A stretch of 64,000 nucleotides of DNA from an uncultured Candidatus Cloacimonas sp. (GTDB lineage Bacteria; Cloacimonadota; Cloacimonadia; Cloacimonadales; Cloacimonadaceae), in assembly GCA_964572925.1 (NCBI GenBank), contig CAZNGW010000001.1, forward strand, positions 11,250 through 75,249, given 5' to 3'. Made by a program: the position numbers and the translations under genes. The notes below the pieces were generated by a model. That model saw only the letters and a list, made by a program, of their open reading frames with translations, was not told the DNA's origin and did not search any database. Shown here piece by piece: positions 18,940 through 36,319 of this stretch. Position 1 is the first letter of the stretch, and each line of letters begins with the position of its first letter.

Positions 18940-18952
18940 AGGCAATAGGTTT

Positions 18953-20413
18953 ATGGAACTAATACGGAACTTGATAAACTCACTTACTTACAACCCCAAA
19001 ATGCCTCTGCTTTTCAACAGCAGCTTCTTCCTTTTTTTCTTTATAGTTATCCTGCTTTTTTATCCACTAGTGGCACCCCGGATCAAGGTGCGAACCTGGT
19101 ATTTGATGCTGATTTCACTGTATTTTTATTATAAAACCAGCGGCAGTTTTGTATTACTTCTACTACTTACCTCGGTGATTAATTTTTACCTGGGAGCCTT
19201 AATCCATAAAGCCAATACCAAGGCGAAAAAACGAAGTCTGTTACTGCTCAGTCTGGTTTGGAATCTGGGATCCCTGGGATACTATAAATATACCAATTTC
19301 CTGATTACTACAATTAATCAGATCTTTGGCGGACAGCTCCCCCTCTACGATATCTTTTTGCCGGTGGGAATATCTTTCTTTACTTTCCAAACCTGGAGCT
19401 ACACCCTGGATGTTTATTTCGGAAAACTGAAACCAATCAGCAGTTTTAGCGATTTCACATTCTTCGTTTCCTTTTTTCCCCAGTTGGTTGCCGGACCGAT
19501 CGTTCGAGCCAGCTATTTTATCCCTCAGATCCACAAAGAAGTGCATCTGGACAAGGATACAATTGCCAAAGCCCTGGTTTTGATTTTTGCTGGGTTGCTA
19601 AAAAAAGGAGTAATCGCCGATTATCTTTCCATAAACTTCGTGGATAGGGTGTTTGAGAATCCGGCTTTATTCTCTGGTCTGGAGAACCTCTTGGGAGTAT
19701 ATGCATACGCTCTTCAGATTTATTGCGATTTCAGCGGGTATTCCGATATAGCCATTGGTTTGGCAGCACTGCTGGGATTCCAGTTGCCTGTGAACTTTCT
19801 AACCCCTTATAGAGCTACTTCGGTTACAGATTTCTGGCGACGCTGGCACATCTCCCTTTCAACTTGGCTTAGGGATTACCTGTATATTCCCCTGGGAGGA
19901 AACCGTAAGGGTAAATTCCGTCAGAACTTAAATCTGATGCTGACCATGCTCTTAGGTGGTTTGTGGCATGGAGCATCCTGGAATTTCGTGGTTTGGGGAG
20001 GTATGCATGGTCTGGCACTTGCTTTTGATAAACTTCTGCTGGACTTCAAATTCATGCAAACCAAGCTAATGAAGGCTATTGGTGTAGTATTTACGTTTCA
20101 TTTCGTGAGCTTTTGCTGGATTTTTTTTCGCAGTCCGGATTTTGGCAGTGCCGGCGTGATGCTTGGCCGCATTTTCACTGCTTTCCATAGTGGGCTTTTC
20201 TGGCAGTGGCTGGTGGAATATAGACTGGTCGCCATTCTGATCGGAGCCGGATTTCTGTTTCATTGGATGCCTGACAGCTTCGAACTCCGATTTGAAAAAA
20301 TGTTACGTAGAACTCCCTTGGTGTTCCAATCACTGATCCTGGCTGTGGTAATCTGGGTGCTTTTCCAGGCTCGATCTGCCGACATCCAACCTTTCATCTA
20401 TTTCCAATTCTGA
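18953..20413 (+). CDS. MBOAT O-acyltransferase (AlgI/PatA/DltB family)
   Basis: LPVGISFFTFQ, FFPQLVAGPI, QIYCDFSGYSD, FWRRWHISLS, GLWHGA (catalytic His). Confidence 0.93.
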   Translation: MELIRNLINSLTYNPKMPLLFNSSFFLFFFIVILLFYPLVAPRIKVRTWYLMLISLYFYYKTSGSFVLLLLLTSVINFYLGALIHKANTKAKKRSLLLLSLVWNLGSLGYYKYTNFLITTINQIFGGQLPLYDIFLPVGISFFTFQTWSYTLDVYFGKLKPISSFSDFTFFVSFFPQLVAGPIVRASYFIPQIHKEVHLDKDTIAKALVLIFAGLLKKGVIADYLSINFVDRVFENPALFSGLENLLGVYAYALQIYCDFSGYSDIAIGLAALLGFQLPVNFLTPYRATSVTDFWRRWHISLSTWLRDYLYIPLGGNRKGKFRQNLNLMLTMLLGGLWHGASWNFVVWGGMHGLALAFDKLLLDFKFMQTKLMKAIGVVFTFHFVSFCWIFFRSPDFGSAGVMLGRIFTAFHSGLFWQWLVEYRLVAILIGAGFLFHWMPDSFELRFEKMLRRTPLVFQSLILAVVIWVLFQARSADIQPFIYFQF

Positions 20414-20423
20414 GGTTTGGGGG

Positions 20424-21599
20424 ATGCCATACCTGTTGAAACCAAGCTTTCAATCCTATTCCTGGGGTGATAAATCATATATCCAAAAACTATGTGGATT
20501 GGATGGTAGTTTTGGCCAACCCCTGGCTGAAATGTGGCTGGGAGCCCATCCCTCTGCGCCTGGGATAATTGTAACCTCAATGGGGGAGATCCCCTTGGAT
20601 GAGTTTATCGCTCTTTCACCAGAAAAGCATTTGGGAAGGGCAGTTCAGGTATATACTGGTAAACTACCTTTCCTGATGAAAGTTCTGGCTGCCGCTAAAC
20701 CGCTTTCTATTCAAGTACATCCAGATAAACTAACAGCTGAACAAGGGTTCGCAATTGAAAACCTGGCTGGAATTGCTCCTGAAGCCCCAAACCGTAGTTT
20801 CAAAGATGATAACCATAAACCGGAATTGGTCTTGGCCATTACGCCATATTCTCTGATGCTGGGCTTTAGAGATTATGAACAAATTGTCTCGCTTATTAAA
20901 TTCTATGGATTGGAAGAAATCTGGGAAGAATTCCAATCCTTCGTTCAATGGCCTTCTAAAACCACTTTAGGTAATCTGTTTCGACAGGTTTTAGATTCTA
21001 CCAAAACTCAGCTGGAGTTTGTGTTACATAGGATGACCTCTCGTATTATGGAACACGAAACTGATTTTATCAGTAAGACTGTTTTAGAGCTTAATACGGC
21101 TTATCCATTGGACACAGGAATCGTGGGTCCCTTGCTATTGAATACCTTTATCTTGCATCCCGGCCAGGCCGTTTATCTGAATGCTGGCGTACCCCATGCA
21201 TATATAAAGGGTGCTGGGATAGAGTTGATGGCAAATTCAGACAATGTTATCAGGGCTGGTTTAACAAATAAATTCGTAGACATAGAGCAGCTTTTGAAAG
21301 TCGCGGATTTCAACCCGTCATTACCGCTTATTCTCAACAAAAAGAAAAATGATAAGCTGAATCGCTATAGGACTCCCTTTATTGAATTTGAGCTGATCTC
21401 TTTAGAGTTGGATGGCAAGGAATGGTTCAATCCTGCAAATTCTCCCGCAATCTTACTCTGTCTCGAGGGCAAGGTAGCTTTTGGCAATGATTTGGAAATC
21501 GGCCAGGGACAGGCAGCTTTCATCTCTGCATCCGAATCTGAACTCACTTTATCTGGAAAGGCAAACTTAGCTATCGCGATTGTCCCATTGATTCCTTGA
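20424..21599 (+). CDS. manA: Mannose-6-phosphate isomerase, class I
   Basis: YSWG, AEMWLGAHP, LPFLMKVL, LSIQVHP, DDNHKPE, HAY, ELMANSDNVIRAGLT. Confidence 0.93.
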   Translation: MPYLLKPSFQSYSWGDKSYIQKLCGLDGSFGQPLAEMWLGAHPSAPGIIVTSMGEIPLDEFIALSPEKHLGRAVQVYTGKLPFLMKVLAAAKPLSIQVHPDKLTAEQGFAIENLAGIAPEAPNRSFKDDNHKPELVLAITPYSLMLGFRDYEQIVSLIKFYGLEEIWEEFQSFVQWPSKTTLGNLFRQVLDSTKTQLEFVLHRMTSRIMEHETDFISKTVLELNTAYPLDTGIVGPLLLNTFILHPGQAVYLNAGVPHAYIKGAGIELMANSDNVIRAGLTNKFVDIEQLLKVADFNPSLPLILNKKKNDKLNRYRTPFIEFELISLELDGKEWFNPANSPAILLCLEGKVAFGNDLEIGQGQAAFISASESELTLSGKANLAIAIVPLIP

Positions 21600-21944
21600 T
21601 CCAATCAACTACGCAACTCACTGCATAACATATCCTTTATTGCGCATACTTTCCCATAATTATCATTTAGTAACTGACTACGAAGGATACGAATAACGAA
21701 AGATTGATATACGGAATATTCCAAGGGATATGTGAAAGTTCTAATGTAGGTTTGCAACGTCATAAAAAAATGACTTGACGCAAATGAACATGTCCGTAAA
21801 TGTGTGCATAGATAATATCATAATAGAACCTATGAACAGAGGTTAAAGTTTGTCTATATATAGCATAGTTCTTAAGCAATATTCGGCGTTTGCACTTGTG
21901 GCAAATTGCATTAATATTTATTTATCACTGTCCCGGGAGGTTTA

Positions 21945-22439
21945 ATGCGCACTATCAAAGCGTTCATTTTAAGCTGCCTGATCTTGCTTATCCTTTGGCT
22001 CGCCTTAACCGGCTGGAAGGGGGATGAATTGATCATAGGCAGCATTTCCGCCGTATTGTTGGCCTTGTTATTTTCATCCCGACTGGCATTTTTGGGCGAC
22101 CTCAAGTTAAATCCGAAAGCAATTTTGTTTGCCATACTATTCATTTTCGTATTTCTGATTGAGCTTATCAAGAGTGCCATAGATGTTGCCCGTCGTGTTA
22201 TATCTCCATCGCTGCCCATCAATCCCGGGATCGTCAAAGTTCGTACCAAACTGCAAAGCCGGCTCGGTAGGATTATCCTGGCCAACTCTATCACCCTGAC
22301 ACCCGGCACTATGACGGTGGAAAGCCGGGGTGAGTTCTTCTATATCCATTGGATAGACATAAAAGGGGAAGATATCGACACGGCTACCAGGAACATTGTA
22401 AATACTTTTGAAAGATACTTGGAGGTGATTTATGGGTGA
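21945..22439 (+). CDS. mnhE: MnhE/MbhA-type antiporter-module subunit
   Basis: PINPGIV, LANSITLTPGT, YIHWI. Confidence 0.9.
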   Translation: MRTIKAFILSCLILLILWLALTGWKGDELIIGSISAVLLALLFSSRLAFLGDLKLNPKAILFAILFIFVFLIELIKSAIDVARRVISPSLPINPGIVKVRTKLQSRLGRIILANSITLTPGTMTVESRGEFFYIHWIDIKGEDIDTATRNIVNTFERYLEVIYG

Positions 22440-22701
22440 TATTGCCCATCTGATCTTCTGCATCTCTTATTATACTTCACTGGTGGCAATGGTTCTGGCT
22501 TTCATGCGTTTTTTAGCAGGTCCGACCTCAGCTGACCGGGTGGTGGCCTTAGATACTATGACGATCGTAGGAATAGTCCTGATCGTATTTGTTTCGTATA
22601 GGGCACAAAGAATTATATATCTTGACGTAGCAATGGTGTATGGCTTGCTTAGCTTTCTGGGCGTGATTGCCGTTGCCCGATATCTTGAGGGGGGAATATG
22701 A
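22432..22701 (+). CDS. mnhF: MnhF/MbhB-type subunit
   Basis: GPTSADRVVALD, YLDVAMVYGLLSFLGVIAVARYL. Confidence 0.9.
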   Translation: MGDIAHLIFCISYYTSLVAMVLAFMRFLAGPTSADRVVALDTMTIVGIVLIVFVSYRAQRIIYLDVAMVYGLLSFLGVIAVARYLEGGI

Positions 22702-23033
22702 TGATTGTAGCTGCCATTATCAGCCTGATCGGATCCATCTTTCTATTCCTGGGAGCTTTAGGGGTAGTTCGCATGCCTGACGTGTACAATAGGATGCAAG
22801 CCGGTACCAAAGCTACAACTCTGGGCTCAATGCTCACCCTAATAGGGATTGGACTGGCTCATCCTGACTGGTTACCAAAGCTTATTCTGTTGATCCTCTT
22901 CGTTTTATTTACCAATCCTGTGAGCACACATGCCCTGGCCAGAGCTGCTCATTTTGCGGGAGTTAAGCTAACATATAAAACAAAAAAAGACACCTTGGTT
23001 GAAGATAGAGTTGAGGAGGATGAAAATGCCTGA
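22698..23033 (+). CDS. mnhG: MnhG/MbhC-type subunit
   Basis: RMPDVYNRMQAGTKATTLG, FTNPVSTHALARAA. Confidence 0.9.
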   Translation: MMIVAAIISLIGSIFLFLGALGVVRMPDVYNRMQAGTKATTLGSMLTLIGIGLAHPDWLPKLILLILFVLFTNPVSTHALARAAHFAGVKLTYKTKKDTLVEDRVEEDENA

Positions 23034-23274
23034 TATCATGGCTCTAATTCTCCTAATCGCGCTTTCACTGGTTGCTGCTATATATGCAACTTTAACCAAA
23101 AAAGCTCTTAATGCTGTGATAGCTTCAGGGATTATCAGTCTTTCTGCATCTATCATCTTTCTTATCTATGGCGCACCAGATGTGGCAATGACAGAGGCCA
23201 CCATTGGAGCCGGTCTGACCACCATAGTTTTTTTGTATGCGTTGAAGCAAACCAAAGGAGGCGAAGATGATTAA
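23026..23274 (+). CDS. MbhD-like (DUF4040-type) subunit
   Basis: GAPDVAMTEATIGAGL; start 23026 follows the SD GAGGAGG. Confidence 0.8.
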   Translation: MPDIMALILLIALSLVAAIYATLTKKALNAVIASGIISLSASIIFLIYGAPDVAMTEATIGAGLTTIVFLYALKQTKGGEDD

Positions 23275-23962
23275 ATACCTCCTGGTGTTTGTTGCAGTTA
23301 TTGGAATCGCCTTGCTTTTCTACCCCCTGGTGGACGATTTGGGTGATCAAACCCAACTTAATCCCTTGGCAGAGCAATATGTGATAGGTAGTGTAACCGA
23401 CCTAAACATACCGAATTCAGTTACAGCCATAGTGGTTACCTATCGTGGTTTGGACACCTTGGGTGAAGTAACCGTCCTGTTTTTGGCTACTGCTGGAGTA
23501 GGATTCCTGCTGGCTTATAAACGCAAAAAGCTGGAAAAGAAACGCCAGGGATCGGAATTCCTGCAGACCGGGGCTGCTTTCCTAAGTCCTCTGATCATCC
23601 TCTTTGGGATATATATCTTCACTCATGGGCACTTGAGTCCTGGGGGAGGATTTCAAGGGGGGGTTGTGATAGCTTCGGCAATATTGCTTATGGTGCTGGC
23701 AGATGTTTCCTTTAATTTCTCCCATGCTCTGCTACATATCAGCGAATCGCTTTCAGGGGTTGGTTATGTCCTGTTGGGACTGCTTGGCTTGCTGCTGATC
23801 GGGGTCACTTCTTTCCTCGATCCCCGCTATCTTCCTGCGGGAGTGTATTTATCCCTGTTCTCAGCTGGAGCGGTTCCTCTGATCTATAGTTTTATCGGAA
23901 TCAAAGTCGGTGCGGAGTTATCAAGTGTGATAGATTCTCTGCACGATGAAGGGGAGGAGTGA
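23267..23962 (+). CDS. mnhB: MnhB / MbhE+MbhF-type subunit
   Basis: NSVTAIVVTYRGLDTLGE and HGHLSPGGGFQGG. Confidence 0.88.
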   Translation: MIKYLLVFVAVIGIALLFYPLVDDLGDQTQLNPLAEQYVIGSVTDLNIPNSVTAIVVTYRGLDTLGEVTVLFLATAGVGFLLAYKRKKLEKKRQGSEFLQTGAAFLSPLIILFGIYIFTHGHLSPGGGFQGGVVIASAILLMVLADVSFNFSHALLHISESLSGVGYVLLGLLGLLLIGVTSFLDPRYLPAGVYLSLFSAGAVPLIYSFIGIKVGAELSSVIDSLHDEGEE

Positions 23963-24333
23963 TGTTGGTATTAATTGGCGGAATCCTCTTGTTAATAGTG
24001 GGAATCTGGGCTATGTTGACAAAAAAGAACATCATCCGGATTGTCATCGGTTTTTCCATTGTGGACACTGGAAGCCATTTGATTATCGTAGCTCTGGGGT
24101 ATATAAAGAATGCCACCGCTCCTATCATAGATACTGCAGTAAAGTATGATCATTCTACCGGGACGGGTATCAAGCTACTCACCAAAGTTGTGGATCCAGT
24201 TCCTTCTGCCCTGGTGCTTACGGCCATTGTGATTGGTCTTGCGGTAACAGCCTTGCTGCTCAGCTTCGCCATTAGGCTGTTCAAGGTTTCCGGAAGCCTG
24301 AATATTGATGAATTTGAGGAGCTGAAATGGTAA
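23959..24333 (+). CDS. mnhC: MnhC/MbhG-type subunit
   Basis: KNIIRIVIG, DPVPSALVLTAIVIG. Confidence 0.9.
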   Translation: MMLVLIGGILLLIVGIWAMLTKKNIIRIVIGFSIVDTGSHLIIVALGYIKNATAPIIDTAVKYDHSTGTGIKLLTKVVDPVPSALVLTAIVIGLAVTALLLSFAIRLFKVSGSLNIDEFEELKW

Positions 24334-27300
24334 ATCCCATGTATCTAATCGCCATGTTTCTGGCGGCAGCTTTCCTGATCGCTCTTGTGGACAAGCTGCA
24401 TAGAGGCATTTCAATAACTGTTTTGTATCTCGTTCTGGCCACAGCCGGAGCATTATCAGCCTGGCAATTATGGTTGTTAAACAGTGGAGTAAAGGTAGAT
24501 ACCACCTTCCTCAGTGCTGGGTTTCCAGCTCCTCTATCGATTGTTCTTCGTTTTGGGATGATCGAAGCCACATTGGTTATGGCTATCAATCTGTTCGGGC
24601 TACTGGGTGCTGTGTACTTAAGCAAGGAACTCTGTGAACAAGGCGCCAGACCTATTGCCTTGTATCTTACGATGATCCTGGGTGCTTCTGGATTGGTGCT
24701 TACCCGCGACATCTTTAATACCTTTGTGTTCTTGGAAATACTATCCATCTCGACCTATGCGCTGATTGCGATCAAACAGGATAAAAACTCTCTGGTAGCT
24801 GGGATTAAATACATGCTTGCGGGAGGTATATCCAGCACCTTGTTTCTCATTGGCATCGTTTTTACCTATCGCTGGACTGGAACCTTGAATCTGGATACCT
24901 GGCTTTCCCTGCCACCAATCAACCGAATTGGCTATGAAGTAGCAATGTTCCTTCTGGCCATGGGTCTTTTCGTGGAGTTGAAGCCATTCCCTGCCAATGG
25001 ATGGGCACTTGACCTCTATCAAAGTGTTCATAGTGGCTTGGGAGCAATCATCTCGACTGTAAATACCGGTGCCTTGCTGTATGTATTCTACAAAGTGATG
25101 CCATTGTTCAGCCCCACGCTTCTTGCCGTGCTTTGCGGTGCAGGTTTAGCAAGTTTTATCCTGGCTAATCTGGTAGCCATACGTCAGAAAGATCCCCAAA
25201 GGCTTCTGGGCTATTCTTCAACTGCTCAAACCGGCTTGATTCTCTTTGCCATGACTTCCCTACAGCAACTTGGGGTAGGTAACGAATTACTTTTAGCAGT
25301 GGTCTTTGGCTTGTTTATCACAAATTACTTAGCCAAATCGGGTTTATTCTGGCTGGCGGGAATGGTAAAAGGAAACACATTGAAAGATTGGAGTTCATTA
25401 AAAGGGACAGGTTCTCCAGGGATTTTCTTTGCCATCTTTGTGATTGCTCTGGCAGCGATGCCACCCTTTCCATCATTCTTTGCAAAGTGGCAATTAGTCC
25501 AGTTGTTCGGTGCTGCAAAAGCCTGGCTTTGGCTGGGGGGATTGTTACTCGGTTCATTATTTGAAGTGGTTTATCTATTTCGATGGCTGGGAACTGCCTT
25601 GGGTTTTGGGGATGTTTATCCCCGCAGACAGGACACTGTTTTCCAGTTAATCCCCATACTTTCTGTCGCAGTGCTACTAATCGGTTTGTCACTATTTGTA
25701 ACGAGATTCCATCCGGAACTTGGTTTACAGGCTATCTTTCCTGTTATTGCCTTCATCCTTTTCGGCGTTTTTGATTTTCTCCCTGCCAAGATGAAGGGAC
25801 TTTTTTTGATATTACTTTTAGGATATTGGGGCTGGTTCTATCTGCTTCCGGGATTGCCACTTCTGGGACAGATATTTGTGCTTATTCTGGTTGGGGGGAG
25901 CATAGCTCAGATATTTGGATTCATGCGCTATCAGGGATCTGCGGAAGGGATGTTCCCTGCACTGGCCCTACTCGTTTTCTCACTGGGAAATCTGGTTGTG
26001 GCGGGGACTAAACTCGAACTTTTCCTGGCATGGGAATTGATGACTATTGGCTCCTATTTTCTGGTTTTACGGGGAAGAAAAGGGCAAAGTCCTGCCTTGA
26101 GCTATATTGTGTTTTCTACTTTCGGAGCTTATTTGTTGCTGGCAGCTCTGGCACTTATACCCGATACCTACAAAGGTTATCCGCTGCTAATCCAAGCTGG
26201 TTTTATCCCAATGGGCGAAATAGCAGGTTTAATGGCACTGCTGGCTTTCCTGATAAAAATCGGTGCTGCTGGTCTCCATTATTGGTTGCCTGGAGCATAC
26301 AGCGAAGCTGATGACGAAAGCAGCAGTATTCTGTCCTCGGTGCTATCCAAAGCCGGAGTGTTTGGATTGTTATTGGTTCTGCTCATTTTTCTTGGGAAAA
26401 TCAGTGGTAATAGTATTAGCATGGTCACACTTGGCTGGATTGGAGTAGCCACTGCTTTCTTTGGTGCATTAATGGCAGTGTTTCAGGAAGATGCAAAAAG
26501 ACTTTTAGCCTATTCCAGTATGAGCCAAATGGGATATATTATTGCCGGTTTCTCGCTGATGAGCCACCTGGGCTGGGTTTCGGCTATGTATCTTGCCGTA
26601 AACCATCTGCTATTCAAGGGATTAATCTTCATGGCTATGGCAGGTGTTTTCTTAAGAACGGGAACCCGCAATATGTATGAGATGGGTGGTTTGATCAAAA
26701 AAATGCCGATTGCCTTCATCAGCGTTTTAATGGGCATAATTGCGGTAAGCGGAGTTCCGCCTTTGAGTGGTTTTGGATCAAAATGGTTCATCTACACCTC
26801 GATGATTGAACAGGGAAGAGTTCTACAGGCAGCGCTGGCTTTCTTCTCCAGTGCAATTTCCTTCCTGTATCTTTATAAACTGATCCATACGGTGTTTTTG
26901 GGTCAGGCGAAACCCCAACAGAGCTCTGTGAAAGAAGCTCCCATCTGGTTGGTAATACCCCAGGGAATCTTTATTATGGCGATCATGGCTATCTCTATGT
27001 TCCCCAATCTGATCACCAAGCCTTTATCAATGGCAATAGGAAACTTCATTCCAAAGCCCGATTGGCTTTCCTGGAACGGTTACGACCTGGTGATGAATTC
27101 ACCCTGGCTGCATGGAAACTGGAATGGCAATCTGGTAATGTTCGTAACGATGGGCGTGTTTATGACCCCGCTGATTTGGTTGCTACTGGTAAATGCCAAG
27201 GTTCAGAAAGTAAAACAATTCAATATCGTTTTTGCTGCAGAAAGACCCTACAAACCCTGGACAACTCATGTAGCATATAATATGTTTGCTCCATACAACA

Positions 27301-27476
27301 AAGCGCTGGGATTTCTGGTTCGCCCCAGGGTAACAGCATTTTACGATGGAGTGGCAGAGTGGTCGCATTCACTGGCTGCTACAATCTCCAGGTTATATAC
27401 AGGGAACGGGCAAACCTATATGTTGCACATCTTTCTCTATATGATTTTCCTATACTCTCTATTGGGGGTGAAATAA
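24327..27476 (+). CDS. mnhD: Tandem MnhD/NuoL-M-N-type ion-translocating subunit (two antiporter-like units fused)
   Basis: Two copies of the antiporter core: FLEILSISTYALI...RLLGYSS and AWELMTIGSYFLV...HYWLPGAY...KRLLAYSS. Confidence 0.88.
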   Translation: MVNPMYLIAMFLAAAFLIALVDKLHRGISITVLYLVLATAGALSAWQLWLLNSGVKVDTTFLSAGFPAPLSIVLRFGMIEATLVMAINLFGLLGAVYLSKELCEQGARPIALYLTMILGASGLVLTRDIFNTFVFLEILSISTYALIAIKQDKNSLVAGIKYMLAGGISSTLFLIGIVFTYRWTGTLNLDTWLSLPPINRIGYEVAMFLLAMGLFVELKPFPANGWALDLYQSVHSGLGAIISTVNTGALLYVFYKVMPLFSPTLLAVLCGAGLASFILANLVAIRQKDPQRLLGYSSTAQTGLILFAMTSLQQLGVGNELLLAVVFGLFITNYLAKSGLFWLAGMVKGNTLKDWSSLKGTGSPGIFFAIFVIALAAMPPFPSFFAKWQLVQLFGAAKAWLWLGGLLLGSLFEVVYLFRWLGTALGFGDVYPRRQDTVFQLIPILSVAVLLIGLSLFVTRFHPELGLQAIFPVIAFILFGVFDFLPAKMKGLFLILLLGYWGWFYLLPGLPLLGQIFVLILVGGSIAQIFGFMRYQGSAEGMFPALALLVFSLGNLVVAGTKLELFLAWELMTIGSYFLVLRGRKGQSPALSYIVFSTFGAYLLLAALALIPDTYKGYPLLIQAGFIPMGEIAGLMALLAFLIKIGAAGLHYWLPGAYSEADDESSSILSSVLSKAGVFGLLLVLLIFLGKISGNSISMVTLGWIGVATAFFGALMAVFQEDAKRLLAYSSMSQMGYIIAGFSLMSHLGWVSAMYLAVNHLLFKGLIFMAMAGVFLRTGTRNMYEMGGLIKKMPIAFISVLMGIIAVSGVPPLSGFGSKWFIYTSMIEQGRVLQAALAFFSSAISFLYLYKLIHTVFLGQAKPQQSSVKEAPIWLVIPQGIFIMAIMAISMFPNLITKPLSMAIGNFIPKPDWLSWNGYDLVMNSPWLHGNWNGNLVMFVTMGVFMTPLIWLLLVNAKVQKVKQFNIVFAAERPYKPWTTHVAYNMFAPYNKALGFLVRPRVTAFYDGVAEWSHSLAATISRLYTGNGQTYMLHIFLYMIFLYSLLGVK

Positions 27477-28384
27477 TGACTCTGGCAATCAAAATCATCT
27501 GGGCTTTCATTTCCTTGGGGGTAGTAACCGTTTGGGGGCTTACCCTCAATGGCATAGTGCACAAAATCTTTGCCAGGGTTCAAGGCCGGCTTGGTCCTCC
27601 TGTCTGGCAACCGTTTTTGGATATTATAAAAAACAACTCCATACGTACAGGCATAACTCATGGCATAATGTTTTATCTTGGTCCGGTCTTCCGCATTGCA
27701 GGAGGAATTGGAACTTATATGTTCATTCCTGTTCTATTTGGCTCGGTCCACTTTGCCAATTTTTCCATGAGTGGTGATGTCTTACTGGTAATGTATTTCA
27801 TTTTCTTTGGACAGCTTGGAATGGCTTTGGGAGCTGGAGAGGGAGGACATCCCTATTCTGCAATAGCGGTAAGCCGCGGATTAGCTCAAATGACTGCTTT
27901 TGAGGTTCCTTTTGCTTTGTCGGTTATCAGTCTGGCCATGCAATACCGAACCCTATCCATCACAGAGATTGTGGCAGCCCAACAGGGCAGCTTCCTGAAC
28001 TGGACGTTCTTTACCAATCCCTTGGCAGTGATTGCAGCCATGATTGCCATGCTGGGGATGAATATGTATAATCCATTCTCTCTGGTAATTGCTCCTCAGG
28101 AAATTCCGATCGGGCCCCCTACTGAGTATCAGGCTTCGTTTCTGGGTCTGCTGGCCACCAATCGCGGTATCTTCAACGGTGCCAAGTTAGTGCTGTTCAT
28201 GAACTTATATTTTGGAGGAGCGACGAATCTGGTGGAACTTATCATTAAAACTTTCTGGATTTACATGTTCAGCGTGTTCATCGGAGCTGCCTATCCTAGA
28301 TTCCGCACTGAGAATTCCATCCGCTTTTTCTTGAAATACCCCACTATCCTGGGGATAATCGCGGTTTTGCTTTTTAGCATGTGA
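27476..28384 (+). CDS. NuoH/MbxM-like membrane anchor subunit
   Basis: Start reassigned to ATG 27476 (TAATG coupling); ARVQGRLGPP, QPFLDIIK, PTEY, YPRFR. Confidence 0.88.
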   Translation: MTLAIKIIWAFISLGVVTVWGLTLNGIVHKIFARVQGRLGPPVWQPFLDIIKNNSIRTGITHGIMFYLGPVFRIAGGIGTYMFIPVLFGSVHFANFSMSGDVLLVMYFIFFGQLGMALGAGEGGHPYSAIAVSRGLAQMTAFEVPFALSVISLAMQYRTLSITEIVAAQQGSFLNWTFFTNPLAVIAAMIAMLGMNMYNPFSLVIAPQEIPIGPPTEYQASFLGLLATNRGIFNGAKLVLFMNLYFGGATNLVELIIKTFWIYMFSVFIGAAYPRFRTENSIRFFLKYPTILGIIAVLLFSM

Positions 28385-28391
28385 GGAGATT

Positions 28392-29096
28392 ATGATCGAT
28401 AAAGATATAAATAAAAACGAAATGCTTGAAACTGATAATGGAGTATCACAGCTAACGACACCAGATTACACCGAATGGCGAAAAGACGATAAAACCCTCC
28501 TTAATGAGGGACTGCCAGAGGAGGAACGGGATTGGTTTTGCGATGCTCGTCCTCAAAAAGCCCGCAAGAGCGTTCAGGTAATTGAAAACTTCCTGAATTG
28601 GGCCCGATCTCAAAGCCTCTGGATTCTAGCATTTGGAACCGGTTGCGGAGCAATCGAGCTACGCCCTTTGGTCACTTCCCGTTATGACATCAGCCGTTTG
28701 GGAATGCAGCCGCGACCCACTCCCCGTCAGGCAAATCTCATCATGATAGGTGGCTATGTGTCCATTAAAACCCTGAAGCGAATTGTTCGCAGTTATGAGC
28801 AGATGCAAGGTCCAAAGTTCGTAGTGGCGGTTTGTTCCTGCGCAATAAATGGCGGGATGTATTGGGATAGCTACAACACCGTGAAAAGAATAGACGATTA
28901 TATTCCTGTAGATGTTTATGTTACTGGTTGTATGCCTCGTCCGGAAGCCGTACTCGCTGGTTTCAACAAGTTAAAAGAACTGATTAAAGCCGGAAAGGCC
29001 GAAGGTCAAAACCTCTATGCGGAAAAATTCGACTGGTATAAAGAAAACCAAAAGAAAGTCATCAAAGACTGGAATATGCCGGATTACAATTGGTAG
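28392..29096 (+). CDS. NuoB/MbxJ-like [4Fe-4S] subunit
   Basis: GTGCGAIE, VCSCAINGG, VDVYVTGCMPRPEA. Confidence 0.9.
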   Translation: MIDKDINKNEMLETDNGVSQLTTPDYTEWRKDDKTLLNEGLPEEERDWFCDARPQKARKSVQVIENFLNWARSQSLWILAFGTGCGAIELRPLVTSRYDISRLGMQPRPTPRQANLIMIGGYVSIKTLKRIVRSYEQMQGPKFVVAVCSCAINGGMYWDSYNTVKRIDDYIPVDVYVTGCMPRPEAVLAGFNKLKELIKAGKAEGQNLYAEKFDWYKENQKKVIKDWNMPDYNW

Positions 29097-29102
29097 GTTG
29101 GT

Positions 29103-29627
29103 ATGGAACAATTATTCAAAGAACTACAACTACAATTCCCTGTATCAGATTTCAGCGCAAAACGTAATGATCTGGCGTTTTGTAGAATTCACAAAGAGCA
29201 TTTGATCAGTTTGCTTACACACTTGAGGGATATAAAAGGCTACTCCCATTTGGTGATGGTTACTTGCATAGATTATCTGGAAGACGAGTTCTTCCTGCTA
29301 ACCTATCTATTACATAACTATATTGAGAAAACCGACTTCGGTATCCAGGTTCCCATTTCCAGAGATGAGACTCTAATGTATAGCATCCACCATCTTTGGG
29401 AACAAGGAAGGGTTTACCAGCGGGAACTACATGAAATGTTCGGGATTGATTTTCCAGGAAGTCCTGGAGTGCATGAACCCATGATCCTGGAAGGGTGGCA
29501 GGGACCCCCTCCCATGCGCAGGGATTTTGATACCAAGGCTTTCAGCGAAGCCACATACAGCCACCGACCCAGGGATCATAAAGAGCCCGAAGAATATATG
29601 AAGCAGCAGCTTTACCCAGAGGATTGA
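29103..29627 (+). CDS. NuoC/MbxK-like subunit
   Basis: YQRELHEMFGIDFPG, PPMRRDF. Confidence 0.88.
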   Translation: MEQLFKELQLQFPVSDFSAKRNDLAFCRIHKEHLISLLTHLRDIKGYSHLVMVTCIDYLEDEFFLLTYLLHNYIEKTDFGIQVPISRDETLMYSIHHLWEQGRVYQRELHEMFGIDFPGSPGVHEPMILEGWQGPPPMRRDFDTKAFSEATYSHRPRDHKEPEEYMKQQLYPED

Positions 29628-29628
29628 T

Positions 29629-30786
29629 ATGGAAAGCTTATATCCGCCTATTGTTAATGGAAAGTCAGTTTACGACCTGAACAGCCAGAAATATCTAAGG
29701 GTATGGCAGGGTCCGCAACACCCGGGTGTTACGGGTAACATGAGTTTGGAATTGGATATCTGCGGAGACCAGGTAATAAAATGCAACACTCATGTTGGTT
29801 ATCTGCACCGGGGATTTGAAAAGCTAATGGAGCGACGCAGATATATAAACTGTTTTCCCATAGTATGCCGTATCTGTGTTCCAGAACCAGACACCAATGA
29901 ATATCTTTTTGCTGCTGCTATGGAAGACCTGATGGGTTTGGAAATCCCCGAGCGGGCAATATGGCTTCGCACCCTGAATCTTGAGCTGTCACGCTTGGCC
30001 AGTTTCCTGATGCATCTTGGTGGACAGAGTGGAGCTTTTGGCATGGGAACCGTGGCACAGTGGACGATTGCTTACCGGGATTATGTGCTCGACCTGTTTG
30101 AAGAGCTGACCGGAGCGCGTATTTATCATATGTATATGACTCCGGGTGGAGTTAGGGGTGACATTCCTGAGGGTTGGATAGCACACGTCCATAAAGTGCT
30201 TGATGGTGCTTCCAGGTTACTCGAAGAAATCCGCCACGTAATGTTGAATAATGCTCTGTTCAAGCAAAGGGCAGTGGGCTTGGGGATAATAACAACTGAC
30301 ATGGTTGACCGTTATGGTATTGTAGGCCCCAATGCACGTTGCACAGGACTTAAACGCGATGTCCGCAAAGACCAGCCCTATCTGGCGTATGACCAGCTGT
30401 CATTCAATGTTGAAACCGAGACAGCCGGGGACGCCTATTCCCGCACACTGATTCGATGGCGAGAAACTCATCAATCAATAGACCTGTGCCGGCAAATATT
30501 GGATAAGATGCCCCAATCCGGTGCAGTCCATGTAACCCTGCCAAACGTTCTGCATCTTAAGATTCCCATCGGTCAAACTTATGTTCGGGCGGAATCAACT
30601 CGCGGAGAGTATGGTTATTTTATGGTTTCCGACGGCAGCGAGTTTCCCCGTAAGGTAACGGTGCGAGGCCCTTCCTACACCCATGCCATGGCTCTTTTGG
30701 AAGACCTGTTGGTGGGAGTAAACATTGCCGATGTTGCCGGATTGATGGTTTCTTTGCATACATACCCGCCAGAAATTGAGAGGTAG
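29629..30786 (+). CDS. NuoD/MbxL-like subunit lacking NiFe ligands
   Basis: GPQHPG, GYLHRGFEKL, RICVPEPD (no second Cys), C-terminus SLHTYPPEIER (no DPCxxC). Confidence 0.9.
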   Translation: MESLYPPIVNGKSVYDLNSQKYLRVWQGPQHPGVTGNMSLELDICGDQVIKCNTHVGYLHRGFEKLMERRRYINCFPIVCRICVPEPDTNEYLFAAAMEDLMGLEIPERAIWLRTLNLELSRLASFLMHLGGQSGAFGMGTVAQWTIAYRDYVLDLFEELTGARIYHMYMTPGGVRGDIPEGWIAHVHKVLDGASRLLEEIRHVMLNNALFKQRAVGLGIITTDMVDRYGIVGPNARCTGLKRDVRKDQPYLAYDQLSFNVETETAGDAYSRTLIRWRETHQSIDLCRQILDKMPQSGAVHVTLPNVLHLKIPIGQTYVRAESTRGEYGYFMVSDGSEFPRKVTVRGPSYTHAMALLEDLLVGVNIADVAGLMVSLHTYPPEIER

Positions 30787-30789
30787 AAA

Positions 30790-32574
30790 GTGAATCTGAA
30801 AGACATATTATCACCCTTATACGTATGGAAGCGTGCCTTTGAAAAGCCTTATTCAATCAATACGCTAAGTAAGGAACGACCGGGAGCACCGCGGTATCGT
30901 GGATTTCATAAAAATGATATTGAAAAATGCATCGGATGTGGAACTTGTGCTGAGATTTGCCAGAACCAATCCATAGAAATGGTTCCGGTAGAAGATACAA
31001 AAGACGGAGACAGCGGATTACGTCCCAAGATAGATTATGGCCGTTGTTGCTGGTGTGCCCTCTGCGTGGATATTTGTCCCAGTGGCTCACTAACTATGTC
31101 CAACAGCTACATATGGGTGGAGGAAGGTCTCGACCGGGATGTGCGTGAAACCTATTGCTTCATTCCTGGATCCGAAGGCAAACCCTGGGATAATGAAGAA
31201 CTTGGTTATCAACGCCCCGAAGGCTATGAATTGCTTCATTTGGAGCGGGTTCCCATGCCTCATCTGAAAGCAGGTGAACGCTTGGAGTCATTTGTAGAGA
31301 TGGTGAAAGGCTATTCACGCGAATTAGCAATTAAGGAAGCAGACCGTTGTATTCAATGTGGGATTTGCACTGCCACATGCCCAGCTCACATGAATATCCC
31401 TGCCTACATAAAAGCCATCCGGGAAGATCGTATTGCAGAAGGATTGAAAATTCTTTATGAAACCAATCCATTCCCAGGAGTATGCGGAAGAGTATGTACA
31501 AGACGTTGTGAAGATGTGTGTGCTTTGTCCCACAGGGGTGAGGCAATTTCCATACGCTGGCTGAAACGCTATCTTACCGATTATGTGGAGGCGAAGGATT
31601 ATCAGGAAGTGCTAAATAGTGAAATTGCACCCAATAATAAGAAAATTGCCATCATCGGTTCCGGCCCGGGGGGGCTAAGTGCAGCTTACTATTTGGCTAA
31701 GCTGGGATACCAGGTGGAGATCTTCGAAAAGAACTCCGCAGCCGGAGGCATGTTGCGTTATGGCATACCTGAATACCGTTTGCCCTACGAAAGCCTGGAC
31801 AAAGACATTAACTACATCCTTTCCCTTGGCGTCCAGATCCATTACAATACGGCAGTTGGCAAGCAGGTCAGCTTCGACGATATCTATCAAAATCACGATG
31901 CCATCTTCATCAGTACTGGACTTTTCGAGCCCTACATTATTGGCATCAAAGGCGAGGAAAACGAAGGTGTGATCAGCGGACTGAAACTTTTGGAAGATAT
32001 TACAAACGGCAAAGAAGTCCAGCTTGGCAAGCATGTAATTGTCGTCGGTGGGGGAAATGTTGCCATGGATGCGGCCAGAACCGCCAAACGCCTGGGTTCG
32101 GAAGTAACCGTGCTGTATCGTCGTCGTCTGGAAGACATGCCTGCCGACCGGGAAGAGATAGAGGAAGCCTTGGAAGAAAATGTGATCTTCACCTGCCAGG
32201 CAATTCCTTTGGAGATTGAAAAAACTCCTGACGGCAGACTTGCCGTGATCTGGGGTAAAGCTGAAATGAAACTGGAGGAAGGTGCCAAACGTCCTTCTCC
32301 AGTCTTGATAGAAGGAAGCAGGGAAGTTCTGGAAGCAGACACGATAATTGCTGCAATTGGACAAGGGATGAATTTCTCCTGGATGGATGGCGAAGCCTTT
32401 GCCAACATCAAATTCGGGAAGTGGAATATCGAAGCTGATCGCTGGGGCAGAAGCAGCGACCAAAAGGTGTTTATCGGCGGTGATATGTTCAATCGTACTG
32501 CAGATGCAATTACTGCAGTAGCTGACGGACATCGAAGTGCCAGAGCGATTGACAGGCTGTTCAATCCAGAATAG
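30790..32574 (+). CDS. Fusion of NuoI/MbxN-like 2x[4Fe-4S] ferredoxin with a GltD/SudA/NfnB-like FAD-NAD(P)H oxidoreductase
   Basis: CIGCGTCAEIC and CCWCALCVDICP, then CIQCGICTATCP...CGRVC...CE..C, IIGSGPGG, VVGGGNVAMD, LYRRR. Confidence 0.9.
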   Translation: MNLKDILSPLYVWKRAFEKPYSINTLSKERPGAPRYRGFHKNDIEKCIGCGTCAEICQNQSIEMVPVEDTKDGDSGLRPKIDYGRCCWCALCVDICPSGSLTMSNSYIWVEEGLDRDVRETYCFIPGSEGKPWDNEELGYQRPEGYELLHLERVPMPHLKAGERLESFVEMVKGYSRELAIKEADRCIQCGICTATCPAHMNIPAYIKAIREDRIAEGLKILYETNPFPGVCGRVCTRRCEDVCALSHRGEAISIRWLKRYLTDYVEAKDYQEVLNSEIAPNNKKIAIIGSGPGGLSAAYYLAKLGYQVEIFEKNSAAGGMLRYGIPEYRLPYESLDKDINYILSLGVQIHYNTAVGKQVSFDDIYQNHDAIFISTGLFEPYIIGIKGEENEGVISGLKLLEDITNGKEVQLGKHVIVVGGGNVAMDAARTAKRLGSEVTVLYRRRLEDMPADREEIEEALEENVIFTCQAIPLEIEKTPDGRLAVIWGKAEMKLEEGAKRPSPVLIEGSREVLEADTIIAAIGQGMNFSWMDGEAFANIKFGKWNIEADRWGRSSDQKVFIGGDMFNRTADAITAVADGHRSARAIDRLFNPE

Positions 32575-32606
32575 ACTATGGCTGTTTAGATAGCTGATGT
32601 AAAATA

Positions 32607-32631
32607 AAAGACCACCCATTGGGTGGTCTTT
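32607..32631. terminator. Bidirectional intrinsic terminator
   Basis: aaagaccaccc-att-gggtggtcttt, flanked by A- and T-rich tracts, between the convergent Mbx-like operon and secF. Confidence 0.85.
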
Positions 32632-32652
32632 CTTTATCGGCCAATATTTGGA

Positions 32653-33633
32653 TTACTTTTTCTTGGTTAGGTTCTGGATTACTTTCTTTTCTTTGTGGGT
32701 GATAGAATCAAGATCGATAACCATGTTACTGGCTACGAAGATTGAGGAATAGGTTCCAAAGAGGATACCCAAAGTCATAGCAAACGCAAAGTCATGAATA
32801 ACGCTGCCACCAAAGATATACAGTGCCAAAGCAGAGAGCAGGGTAGTTCCGGCTGTAATTGTGGTTCTGGAAAGCGTGGTATTCATAGCCCGGTTAAAAA
32901 CTTCGGGCACGGGATCTTTACGATAAATCTTCAGATCTTCGCGGATTCGATCGAATATAACGATTGTATCATTGATGCTATAACCTACAATGGTAAGTAA
33001 GGCTGCTATGATCTGAACGGTAATCTCTTTACCGGTTAATGCAAAGATACCTACGATGATGAATACATCATGGAACAAGGCAAAGATAGCCATCAAGCCA
33101 AATGTGAGTTCAAACCGGAACCAAATGTAAACAATCATGGCCAGCAAAGAGATCAGCACTGCCAGGAAAGCGGCAGTCCGAAGTTCACCACCGACCTTGG
33201 GGCCAACTTCGTAAATCTCTTCCACCACATCCTTGCCAAGATCCTTGCCTTTTACGTATTCTGGAAGGTTAGTCTGGATGATCTCCAGGATTTTTGTTTT
33301 GGTATCGGCTGAAACATTGGCGGAATTTGAAACGCTTTTGATCTTGATCTGGAAAACGGCATTTTCCGGGGCACCTACAAACAGGATTTCAGCTTCCGGA
33401 AAACCGTTGCTTTTTAACAGAGAGCGTAGTTTATCAATTTTAAGGGGTTGCACTGAAGCATCCATGGCTTTCAGATTTACTGTGGCGGCTACACCGCTGG
33501 TGAAATCTATACTCCAATTCAGTCCATTCATAACCAGTCCGACCACCCCGGCCAGGATAAAGAGCGCTGAAATAGCATAGGCTATATAGCGGCTCTTTAC
33601 GAAGGGGAAATTTGCATTTTTAAAGATTCTCAT
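32653..33633 (-). CDS. secF: Protein translocase subunit SecF
   Basis: IDFTSG, VGPKVGGEL, GYSINDTIVIFDRIRE, GTYSSIFVA. Confidence 0.96.
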   Translation of the reverse strand: MRIFKNANFPFVKSRYIAYAISALFILAGVVGLVMNGLNWSIDFTSGVAATVNLKAMDASVQPLKIDKLRSLLKSNGFPEAEILFVGAPENAVFQIKIKSVSNSANVSADTKTKILEIIQTNLPEYVKGKDLGKDVVEEIYEVGPKVGGELRTAAFLAVLISLLAMIVYIWFRFELTFGLMAIFALFHDVFIIVGIFALTGKEITVQIIAALLTIVGYSINDTIVIFDRIREDLKIYRKDPVPEVFNRAMNTTLSRTTITAGTTLLSALALYIFGGSVIHDFAFAMTLGILFGTYSSIFVASNMVIDLDSITHKEKKVIQNLTKKK

Positions 33634-33646
33634 GGGTGATCTCCTC

Positions 33647-35227
33647 TTAGATACTCAGTTTCTTGCTGGTGCCAGTGAGAACGAAGGTGTCCAGAATGGA
33701 ACGGACAAACACGATGGCTGTGAACATCGAACCGATGATACCAATGGACAGGGTTACCGCAAAACCGCGGATCGGACCTGTTCCAAAGTTGTAAAGCACA
33801 GCTGCGGCGATCAGAGTGGTAAGGTTTGAATCCCACACGGTGACAACTGCGCGTTTGTAACCTGCATCTACGGCACTGCGTGGAGTTTTTCCCTGATCGA
33901 GTTCTTCACGGACGCGTTCATATATAAGCACGTTGGCATCAACTGCCATACCAATGGTAAGGATTATACCAGCGATACCGGGCATGGTAAGGGTGGCACC
34001 AAAAGCGGTAAGCATGGCCAGGATGAATCCGACATTGAAGATAAGAGCAAAATCGGCAATGAAGCCTGAAAGTTTGTAATAGAATAGCATGAAAAGCACT
34101 ACGGAGATCAAACCGATGAGTCCTGCCATGCTGCCACTGCGGATGCTGTCGCTGCCAAGCGTAGCACCGATGATGGAGGTGGAAATTGGTTTGATGGGAG
34201 CGATCAGGTTTCCGGTATTGAGCACGATGGAAAGTTCATTGGCTTCTGCAGAGGTAAATTTACCGGTTATTTGAGCCCTGCCGCCAGAAATGCGTTCCTG
34301 AATATTGGGAGCGGAATAAACCACTCCGTCCAGAACGATTGCCAAACGCTTGCCGGTATTATCGGCGGTAACGCGTTCAAACTTACGGCTGCCTTCACGC
34401 TTCATTTCAATGGAAACATAGGGTTTATTGGCGATCCGGGGATCGGTGGATGTGGAAGATCCATATTCCACTTTGGCTTTGGCCAGGTCGGCACCTGAAA
34501 GCTCAACTGCCGAGGATAATACATGCAGAACCCGATCAGCCCGGGCAGTTTCGGTGTCGGCTTTTTCAAGGGCAAGCTGGTAGCCCAGGGGAACGGCTTG
34601 CTGGAAAAGAGTATCGGCAAGCAGGTCCTGAACTAAACGGACATCACTGAACTGAACTTCGTAGTCAGCTTCCCCGGGACGAACCAGGGAACTGAACACT
34701 CCGGTTCCGGCTTTCACGCTATCTGCTTTGTCAGCCATGATGCTTTTGTCTTTCTTATCCAATTCAGCCAGTTTGGGGAAGAGGCCAAGGTTGTTGCTGA
34801 TGTTCAGGTCGATAGTATCCATCACTTTTTTGGCTTCTTCACCGGAAACGACCAGCTTGAATTCCAGCATAGCGGTCTGTTTGATCAGGTTTTCGGCAGC
34901 TTCATAATTTGAAACGCCGGGTAACTGAACCATAATCCGGTTTTCACCGAGTTTCTGGATTGAAGGTTCAGCCACACCAAATTGGTCGATACGTTCACGA
35001 ATAATCTTGATGTTTTGATCAACAGCGCCACGGGCATCGGTTTGCGACAGTTCGCTGGTGTCTACTTCCAGAAGGATCTGCATTCCACCACGCAGGTCAA
35101 GTCCGAGTTTCAGCTTGTGCTTCGACCACCATTCAGGCAGGTTCGGAATTGCCAAAGGAGCCAAATAAAATGCGGTTACGCATATGAATATGACTATTGA
35201 AAGGCCACGCCAGGAAAACTTCTTCAT
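33647..35227 (-). CDS. secD: Protein translocase subunit SecD
   Basis: KLGLDLRGG, RIDQFGVAEP, AIVLDG, GMAVDANVLIYERVREE. Confidence 0.96.
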   Translation of the reverse strand: MKKFSWRGLSIVIFICVTAFYLAPLAIPNLPEWWSKHKLKLGLDLRGGMQILLEVDTSELSQTDARGAVDQNIKIIRERIDQFGVAEPSIQKLGENRIMVQLPGVSNYEAAENLIKQTAMLEFKLVVSGEEAKKVMDTIDLNISNNLGLFPKLAELDKKDKSIMADKADSVKAGTGVFSSLVRPGEADYEVQFSDVRLVQDLLADTLFQQAVPLGYQLALEKADTETARADRVLHVLSSAVELSGADLAKAKVEYGSSTSTDPRIANKPYVSIEMKREGSRKFERVTADNTGKRLAIVLDGVVYSAPNIQERISGGRAQITGKFTSAEANELSIVLNTGNLIAPIKPISTSIIGATLGSDSIRSGSMAGLIGLISVVLFMLFYYKLSGFIADFALIFNVGFILAMLTAFGATLTMPGIAGIILTIGMAVDANVLIYERVREELDQGKTPRSAVDAGYKRAVVTVWDSNLTTLIAAAVLYNFGTGPIRGFAVTLSIGIIGSMFTAIVFVRSILDTFVLTGTSKKLSI

Positions 35228-35250
35228 TGGCTTATGCTCCCTTTTTACTT

Positions 35251-35259
35251 TATTATAGC
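35251..35259 (-). promoter_or_regulatory. Extended -10 promoter element for secDF
   Basis: TGcTATAAT on the minus strand, followed by a GGAG SD and the secD ATG. Confidence 0.45.
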
Positions 35260-35407
35260 ATGTTTTTTAGTCGTTTCGTTCCAAAACTCTGATATGCCGT
35301 CATTCGTCAAGGGAAATGTTCGTTTGCAGGTATTTCCGAAAACTGTCGGCATTCACGCAATACACTTTTATCATCCCCACATCGTCCTTCCTTTCTCGCC
35401 TCGGGTA

Positions 35408-35481
35408 CCCCATTCCCAACCCTCCCTTGTCCCTCCCTCATTCCATACGGGTGGGTTATGGGTGGCTCAAGAGTGGCTTTC
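35408..35481 (-). repeat. Intergenic palindromic element, copy 3 (opposite orientation, degenerate)
   Basis: Minus strand reads gaaagccac...cccacccgtatggaatgagggaggg, sharing gaaagccac, ccacccgta and atgagggaggg with the 59.5-kb copy. Confidence 0.7.
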
Positions 35482-35564
35482 GGGATTCGAGACAGCAAGG
35501 TAAAGGCTGGTAGTCAGGAATAAACCAACACTTGGAGGTTTGATTGGCTTTCCAGGAAAGATGG

Positions 35565-36314: not shown

Positions 36315-36319
36315 AAGTC

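Follow-up and report, generated by a model that had tools for sequence, protein, structure and literature searches.

What does a complex-I-like membrane oxidoreductase do when its terminal ferredoxin-type subunit is fused to a flavoprotein for pyridine nucleotides? An operon of twelve genes in an uncultured Candidatus Cloacimonas species raises this question. It lies at 21945-32574 on the forward strand of a 64,000-nucleotide stretch (assembly GCA_964572925.1, contig CAZNGW010000001.1, contig positions 11,250 to 75,249), which we call the window and to which the coordinates below refer. Our analyses indicate that the operon very probably encodes a complex of the MBS family, known from Pyrococcus furiosus, that carries an NADPH module. 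What such a complex might reduce can be answered more tentatively: we favour NADPH-fed reduction of a sulfane-sulfur-type acceptor at an iron–sulfur cluster with three cysteine ligands, coupled to ion pumping, and give this reading a probability of roughly 45%.

An original prediction for this DNA, made from the letters and their open reading frames (ORFs), had described twelve coupled genes at this site. All twelve ORFs are indeed present there; in the ORF list, neighbours overlap by 1-35 nucleotides (nt) or are separated by gaps of 1-7 nt, and in a Pfam profile search each ORF matched the family expected of it. The genes, with lengths in amino acids (aa), and one motif discussed further below are:

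21945..22439, + strand: MbsA / MnhE-like subunit, 164 aa (PF01899 MNHE, 136.6 bits)
22432..22701, + strand: MbsB / MrpF-like subunit, 89 aa (PF04066, MrpF_PhaF, 66.6 bits)
22698..23033, + strand: MbsC / MnhG-like subunit, 111 aa (PF03334, PhaG_MnhG_YufB, 97.2 bits)
22999..23274, + strand: MbsD (MbhD-type), 91 aa, with an uncertain TTG start (PF13244 MbhD, 77 bits)
23267..23962, + strand: MbsE with MbhE and MnhB domains, 231 aa (PF04039, 75.6 bits; PF20501, 28.7 bits)
23959..24333, + strand: MbsG / MnhC / NuoK-like subunit, 124 aa (PF00420, Oxidored_q2, 74.1 bits)
24327..27476, + strand: MbsH-MbsH' fusion of two antiporter-like subunits, 1049 aa (two PF00361, Proton_antipo_M, stretches)
27476..28384, + strand: MbsM / NuoH-like membrane anchor, 302 aa (PF00146, NADHdh, 150.7 bits)
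28392..29096, + strand: MbsJ / NuoB-like subunit with the proximal [4Fe-4S] cluster, 234 aa (Oxidored_q6; 6u8y_J, 221 bits)
29103..29627, + strand: MbsK / NuoC-like subunit, 174 aa (PF00329, Complex1_30kDa, 79.8 bits)
29629..30786, + strand: MbsL / NuoD-like large subunit, 385 aa (Complex1_49kDa; 6u8y_L, 318.9 bits)
30790..32574, + strand: MbsN-NfnB-like fusion, 594 aa (Fer4 dicluster, Fer4_20 and Pyr_redox_2)
32116..32127, + strand: YRRR motif, fusion residues 443-446, directly after the second GGGNVAMD Rossmann motif

This order corresponds to the thirteen-subunit set mbsABCDEGHH'MJKLN, complete and colinear, with two fusions, one of MbsH with MbsH' and one of MbsN with the NfnB-like protein. 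The operon thereby shares its subunit set and gene order with P. furiosus MBS (PDB 6U8Y), and chains of this structure were the best PDB matches of its L, J, M, H, H' and N subunits. In contrast to the archaeal complex, H and H' form one polypeptide here and the host is a mesophilic bacterium. The antiporter set had initially been written as MnhE-F-G-(D)-B-C-D. Its genes are present, but the last 'D' is in fact the 1049-aa fusion, in which MbsH takes up residues 6 to about 470 (residues 6-261 match 6u8y_H with 169 bits) and MbsH' residues 482-1044 (206 bits against residues 43-615 of 6u8y_X). The NuoH-like gene that follows starts at ATG 27476, not at GTG 27359, and overlaps the preceding stop codon as TAATG.

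For the large subunit, 6u8y_L was matched end to end with 318.9 bits, as compared with at most 219.7 bits for complex I chains, 136.2 bits for MBH and 112.6 bits for FHL. Likewise, the MbsM-like subunit matched 6u8y_M with 145.5 bits versus 58 for MBH and 47 for NDH, and the MbsJ-like subunit 6u8y_J with 221 bits versus 142 for NDH and 85 for MBH. Residues 6-111 of the terminal fusion matched 6u8y_N with 86 bits. The MbsK-like subunit was uninformative, its 42.8 bits to 6u8y_K being about equal to the score of the complex I ND9 chain. Our placement of the large subunit combines bit-score ranking with motif checks; its 150 best cluster representatives bottom out at 179 bits, above the MbhL score. 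The original prediction had singled out a grouping of this subunit with bona fide NiFe hydrogenases as the result that would speak against it, and upon checking the subunit was closer to MbsL. With the full gene set at hand and L, J and M all closest to 6U8Y chains, the description as a complete Mrp-Mbx/MBS-like complex of non-NiFe type stands.

Motifs in the large subunit point in the same direction. It retains the RICVPEPD motif, as in P. furiosus MBS, and a CxxC (C80, C83) at the former L1 position. Its C terminus, TYPPEIER, contains no cysteine and thus lacks the L2 pair found in NiFe hydrogenases. Moreover, HypD (PF01924) was not found and PF00374 gave no match in the genome, which is 2.72 Mb in size and 99.8% complete. 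Because the L2 pair is gone and neither HypD nor a PF00374 match was found, we conclude that the protein is not a NiFe hydrogenase. In an alignment with mouse NDUFS2, the quinone-ligand His and Tyr of complex I (His38 and Tyr87 in Thermus Nqo4 numbering) align to T35 and V84, and the NuoB-like subunit has GTGCG where complex I carries tandem cysteines. Since both the quinone ligands and the NuoB tandem are missing, the complex is not a quinone reductase of known type either. P. furiosus MBS likewise lacks both a NiFe site and the quinone His and Tyr. No NuoE, NuoF or NuoG of an N-module was found in the operon or its flanks. The complex thus resembles complex I in its homologous Q- and P-module subunits and in having a pyridine-nucleotide flavoprotein at the distal end of its cluster chain; it differs from complex I in the absence of NuoEFG and of the quinone ligands, in the single NuoB cysteine at the tandem position and in the presence of the Mrp E, F and G subunits. 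The large subunit nevertheless passes the NCBIfam NuoD equivalog cut-off (NF004739, 387 versus 360 bits), so that automatic annotation will label it NADH-quinone oxidoreductase subunit D despite the lost quinone ligands.

In P. furiosus MBS, the proximal cluster is held by MbsJ C28, C93 and C123, with C25 too distant to ligate; MbsJ C25, MbsL C85 and MbsL C385 are dispensable in mutants, and polysulfide reduction has been proposed to occur at the iron that has no cysteine ligand (PMC7684303). The MbsJ-like subunit of the window aligns to 6u8y_J without gaps over residues 63-226 and shares its loop length. Its C85, C150 and C180 occupy the ligand positions C28, C93 and C123, G82 stands at the position of the non-ligating C25, and Y379 of the large subunit at that of MbsL C385. 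We extended the comparison to the best 80 loci of relatives (47-79% identity), from which J and L were extracted. The three ligand cysteines were invariant in 72 of 72 relatives. At the C25 position all relatives but two have Gly, the MbsL C85 position varies between Cys, Ala and Ser, and the C385 position between Tyr and Cys. Residues critical in MBS are hence fixed and those dispensable there drift, which argues for a proximal site of MBS type. We therefore predict from these alignments that the proximal [4Fe-4S] cluster has MBS-type ligation by three cysteines. Two additional cysteines relative to P. furiosus, C148 in J and C80 in L, were also seen, and the extra cysteine (VCSC) is restricted to three loci of Cloacimonadota and two of spirochaetes.

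A further difference from P. furiosus MBS lies at the end of the operon. MbsN of P. furiosus is a stand-alone subunit that docks ferredoxin, whereas N here is fused to an NfnB-like NADPH flavoprotein of 440 aa. Residues 1 to about 112 of the fusion form a NuoI/MbsN-type domain for two [4Fe-4S] clusters, and residues from about 151 to 591 an NfnB/SudA-like module with two further [4Fe-4S] clusters and sites for flavin adenine dinucleotide (FAD) and NADPH. Against the PDB, this module scored 301 bits with P. furiosus NfnI-L (5jca_L) and 299 bits with Thermotoga maritima NfnB (4ylf_B), followed by subunits of NfnABC and StnABC, then by GltD with 201 and DPD with 132 bits. An AlphaFold2 model of the fusion, built with 52 sequences, reached a predicted local distance difference test score (pLDDT) of 85 and a predicted template-modelling (TM) score of 0.78, with a low-confidence linker at 111-119; in Foldseek it superposed on 5jca_L with a TM score of 0.88. 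A single ORF of 594 aa with these Pfam and PDB matches bears out the covalent attachment of an NfnB/GltD-like NAD(P)H flavoprotein that had been read from the sequence. All 16 canonical cluster cysteines, together with the glycine motifs for FAD and NADPH, are invariant in the 52 fusion sequences.

The module is like the large subunit of NfnB/NfnI (SudA; 5JCA, 4YLF) in its fold, its FAD and NADPH motifs, its two [4Fe-4S] clusters and the YRR at the 2'-phosphate position. It is unlike Nfn in that the operon encodes no NfnA partner and the module is fused to a NuoI-type domain within a membrane complex; the first cluster motif is, unlike in NfnB/NfnI, a compact CxxCxxCxxxCP. In NCBIfam, residues 3-591 match positions 8-606 of NF010590 (PRK13984, 'putative oxidoreductase', 611 positions) with 689 bits, below the equivalog cut-off of 946, which points to a shared architecture in a probably diverged lineage and does not certify orthology. 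One more cysteine of the N domain, C87 (31045-31047), is not among the canonical ligands, and the second ferredoxin motif there reads CCWCALCVDICP. Since C87 is invariant in 52 of 52 family sequences, it may matter for ligation or tuning of a cluster.

Which nucleotide does the module use? The YRRR motif is kept in 46 of the 52 fusion sequences (columns for residues 442-451), and the NADPH-dependent NfnI large subunit has YRRT at the equivalent position. The remaining forms read ALED in Rhodobacterales, Lysobacterales and Gallionellaceae, and SLET or CLES in Bacteroidales; in all of these, the position that classically selects for NADH is acidic. As the motif switches naturally to acidic forms of NADH type, we read YRRR as a determinant for NADPH. 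The earlier assignment of YRRR as an NADP(H)-type motif is thus strengthened by the acidic replacements in Proteobacteria and Bacteroidales, and the fusion family apparently has versions predicted for NADPH and for NADH, an apparent natural switch of specificity.

How widespread is this architecture? A search in which each species was represented by one genome found a relative of the large subunit in at least 598 of these genomes. The best 80 loci come from Cloacimonadota, Spirochaetota, Gamma-, Alpha- and Betaproteobacteria (with the cultured Aliiruegeria, Tropicimonas and Sinisalibacter), Bacteroidales, Chlorobiota, Ignavibacteria (Melioribacter roseus), Calditrichaceae, Marinimicrobia, Fermentibacteria, Aminicenantes, WOR-3 and Sulfurovum. 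The operon is equally intact in sulfur-oxidising Gammaproteobacteria, Rhodobacterales, Bacteroidales, Spirochaetota and Ignavibacteria. J, K, L and M were kept in every locus with enough DNA, and where the downstream DNA suffices, L is nearly always followed directly by a full-length N-NfnB fusion; N is unfused only in three loci of Sulfurovum/Sulfurovaceae and in one of Chromatiaceae. The H-H' junction is spanned by a single tblastn high-scoring segment pair in 43 of the 80 loci. Where the contig is long enough, gene order is otherwise colinear, except that C and D are swapped in three gammaproteobacterial loci. Within Cloacimonadota, 52 of 139 good genomes have the operon, and within the genus it is present in 6 of 14 further genomes. 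Given this patchiness the operon does not appear specific to syntrophy, and the proposed link to reverse electron transport in a syntrophic fermenter is not borne out by the distribution, the operon being intact in many phyla.

The architecture is hence widespread in bacteria and has already been described from genomes; biochemically, the family is uncharacterised. In mbx-like operons of Thermotoga and proteobacteria, NuoI is replaced by a gltD-like flavoprotein, often followed by rubrerythrin (PMC4758237, 2015). By these descriptions, the operon of the window resembles the bacterial Mrp-Mbx operons ending in a GltD/NfnB-like flavoprotein (PMC4758237, PMC9431562); in contrast to them, it has no rubrerythrin gene after it. 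The original prediction also mentions a Thermotoga Mbx cluster with a GltD-like gene; such a cluster is in print (PMC4758237), and the evidence from T. maritima is at the transcript level (PMC9431562).

Several genes recur beside the operon in the relatives. In 17 loci, which span several phyla, the fusion is followed by a rubrerythrin-like gene (150 aa; e.g., L007:3307-3759), and by a DHO_dh-like gene (329 aa) in 13 loci of Bacteroidales and Melioribacter (e.g., L027:6967-7956), giving a DPD/PreTA-like combination. Other recurrent neighbours are CBS-domain proteins (7 loci), Crp/Fnr regulators (12 loci) and Rex-like regulators (4 loci). None of the rubrerythrin-like, DHO_dh-like, CBS, Crp/Fnr or Rex-like genes was found at the locus studied here.

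How might the complex work? We suggest that NADPH would reduce FAD in the NfnB-like module and that electrons might then run from FAD to the proximal cluster of MbsJ by way of four clusters, first the NfnB-type pair and then the MbsN pair. Such a linear wire is suggested because the fusion is covalent, the clusters are invariant and the N domain stands just ahead of the NfnB-like iron–sulfur domain. By analogy, this suggests that the flavoprotein would take the part played by the N-module in complex I. The strict conservation of J, K, L and M and of the three-cysteine cluster makes it most likely that, as in MBS, substrate turnover takes place in the J/L/M chamber, where the iron without a cysteine ligand could reduce an acceptor of the sulfane-sulfur or polysulfide type. 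This chemistry would drive translocation of H+ or Na+ via MbsH, MbsH' and the Mrp-type module. The overall reaction may be reversible, and ferredoxin may be a second partner. Sulfane sulfur or polysulfide is our best guess for the acceptor, by analogy to the P. furiosus complex. SudA/NfnI has NADPH-polysulfide activity in vitro. The 4.4-fold increase of T. maritima mbxA with elemental sulfur (S0; PMC9431562) also fits a sulfane-sulfur acceptor.

Several points weigh against NADPH-fed sulfane reduction. Transfer from NADPH to polysulfide yields about 10 kJ per two electrons under standard conditions, as estimated from textbook potentials, which is little for two antiporter-like subunits. No sulfur-handling gene recurs beside the operon among the 80 loci, and the family has members in aerobic Rhodobacterales, for which one would not expect sulfur respiration. 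Endoriftia co-expresses the complex with its ferredoxin-dependent reductive tricarboxylic acid cycle (PMC11636981), which would suit production of ferredoxin equally well.

The last point leads to the main rival, a reversible, ion-translocating ferredoxin:NADP+ oxidoreductase similar to Rnf, in which transfer from reduced ferredoxin to NADP+ over the N and NfnB-like clusters would pump ions and the reverse reaction, fed by NADPH and the ion gradient, would generate reduced ferredoxin. This is the idea of reverse electron transport in the original prediction and corresponds to the 2015 reading of mbx-like operons, having been proposed for those of the gltD type (PMC4758237). An NfnB-type module naturally joins NADPH to clusters at the ferredoxin level, the co-expression in Endoriftia fits, and the Rex-like and Crp/Fnr regulators beside some loci would fit redox balancing, as would the lack of nearby sulfur genes in the 80 loci be in line with it. 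However, electrons flowing between ferredoxin and FAD would bypass the proximal cluster and the J/L/M chamber, yet the three-cysteine cluster is invariant (72 of 72) and J, K, L and M are all retained where a locus has enough DNA. Coupling in every studied relative stems from chemistry at the proximal-cluster site (PMC7684303, PMC8165549), and for P. furiosus Mbx itself an initially proposed ferredoxin:NADP+ function (PMC4758237) has since been replaced by sulfane reduction (PMC7684303). Furthermore, the activity would be redundant in this organism: the genome has Rnf-type genes (two RnfD/NqrB-type gene loci) as well as NfnA-like genes on contigs C5 and C4, of which the C5 copy adjoins another Fer4_20 gene and so forms an NfnA/NfnB-like pair. 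Plain exchange between ferredoxin and NAD(P)H is therefore covered elsewhere, and we regard such a function of the operon as rather unlikely.

A further alternative retains the architecture and changes the acceptor at the three-cysteine cluster to an organic per- or disulfide, a peroxide-related substrate or another small molecule. The rubrerythrin-like and DHO_dh-like genes described above would fit such substrates, as would the family's presence in aerobes, and the extra cysteines beside the cluster, C148 of J and C80 of L, are confined to certain lineages. Yet both accessory genes are absent at the present locus, and the active-site region resembles P. furiosus MBS to about the same degree as the remaining parts of the proteins do. 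We consider a different acceptor improbable.

Less probable again is a respiratory complex in which FAD bifurcates or confurcates electrons, splitting the NADPH pair between the acceptor of the N-J chain and ferredoxin, or running in reverse. The module is nearer to the bifurcating NfnB/NfnI-L, NfnABC and StnABC proteins than to the non-bifurcating GltD or DPD (300 versus 200 versus 130 bits; TM score 0.88 versus 0.84). If true, this would be the first respiratory complex to bifurcate or confurcate at a flavin, merging bifurcation with chemiosmotic coupling. But an NfnA-like second branch was found neither in nor beside the operon and does not recur among the neighbours of the 80 loci, and both NfnB-type clusters have four cysteines in classical motifs, unlike the spacing in NfnI-L. 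Finally, a Mrp-linked, H2-evolving group 4 [NiFe] hydrogenase, as might be expected from the retained CxxC at the former L1 position and from the HydDB annotation 'Group 4g NiFe hydrogenase linked to Mrp' listed for metagenome-assembled genomes of other Cloacimonadota (PMC8542988), has next to no chance and is rejected at the sequence level, with the L2 cysteines and HypD and PF00374 matches absent, 136 bits to MbhL against 319 to MbsL, and L1 cysteines that vary to Ala or Ser in relatives.

Naming matters here: annotation pipelines call the subunits of such operons complex I, and a Mrp-linked membrane complex of other Cloacimonadota, possibly the same one, has been published as a group 4g hydrogenase (PMC8542988). 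Either name skews models of metabolism in anaerobic digesters. MBS/Mbx complexes of bacteria that include an NAD(P)H module occur in hundreds of species, from syntrophs of digesters to marine Rhodobacterales and sulfur-oxidising symbionts. Identifying the acceptor and the donor (NADPH here, NADH by the motifs elsewhere) would help to link MBS with complex I by showing how a pyridine-nucleotide input module came to be placed on a complex-I-like pump. The locus of the window contributes a clean and complete example of the NADPH type from an abundant sludge organism; this is a correction of annotation and introduces no new principle or kind of system.

The operon is set between unrelated genes, MBOAT and phosphomannose isomerase upstream and the convergent secF/secD downstream. 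Two noncoding features delimit it:

21600..21944, + strand: intergenic region upstream of the operon, 345 nt, presumed promoter region
32606..32632, no strand assigned: hairpin with a 12-bp palindromic stem, located after the operon and before the convergent secF (scored as terminator-like on the - strand)

The hairpin is likely a terminator shared by the operon and secF. A scan for the sigma-70 consensus returned no site in 21600..21944, and the whole region was at background, with 22 sites found versus 18.5 expected.

A second complex-I-like cluster, with six genes, is present on contig C26 (L100:1829-8877, - strand). It encodes a NuoCD-like protein of 483 aa (P0275) without NiFe cysteine pairs, a NuoB-like protein with an unmatched N-terminal extension of about 130 aa, two antiporter-like subunits, a NuoH-like subunit and one protein without a Pfam match. 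The cluster looks like an Ehr-type (hydrogenase-related) complex that lacks an adjacent partner gene.

Two sludge runs from a single study contain the organism in abundance, with a contig depth of about 115-131 over 18000-37000. The only runs that contain the stretch are labelled 'METAGENOMIC RNA-Seq' but behave as DNA, with contigs of 25-30 kb covering both strands and flat depth; no RNA run is listed for it. Public sludge contigs break at 35034-35637, and the match to an unrelated 5.5-kb contig is confined to 35421-35465, which fits a short dispersed repeat. The sludge contigs are near-identical to the window, differing from it at 17 positions in 17 kb.

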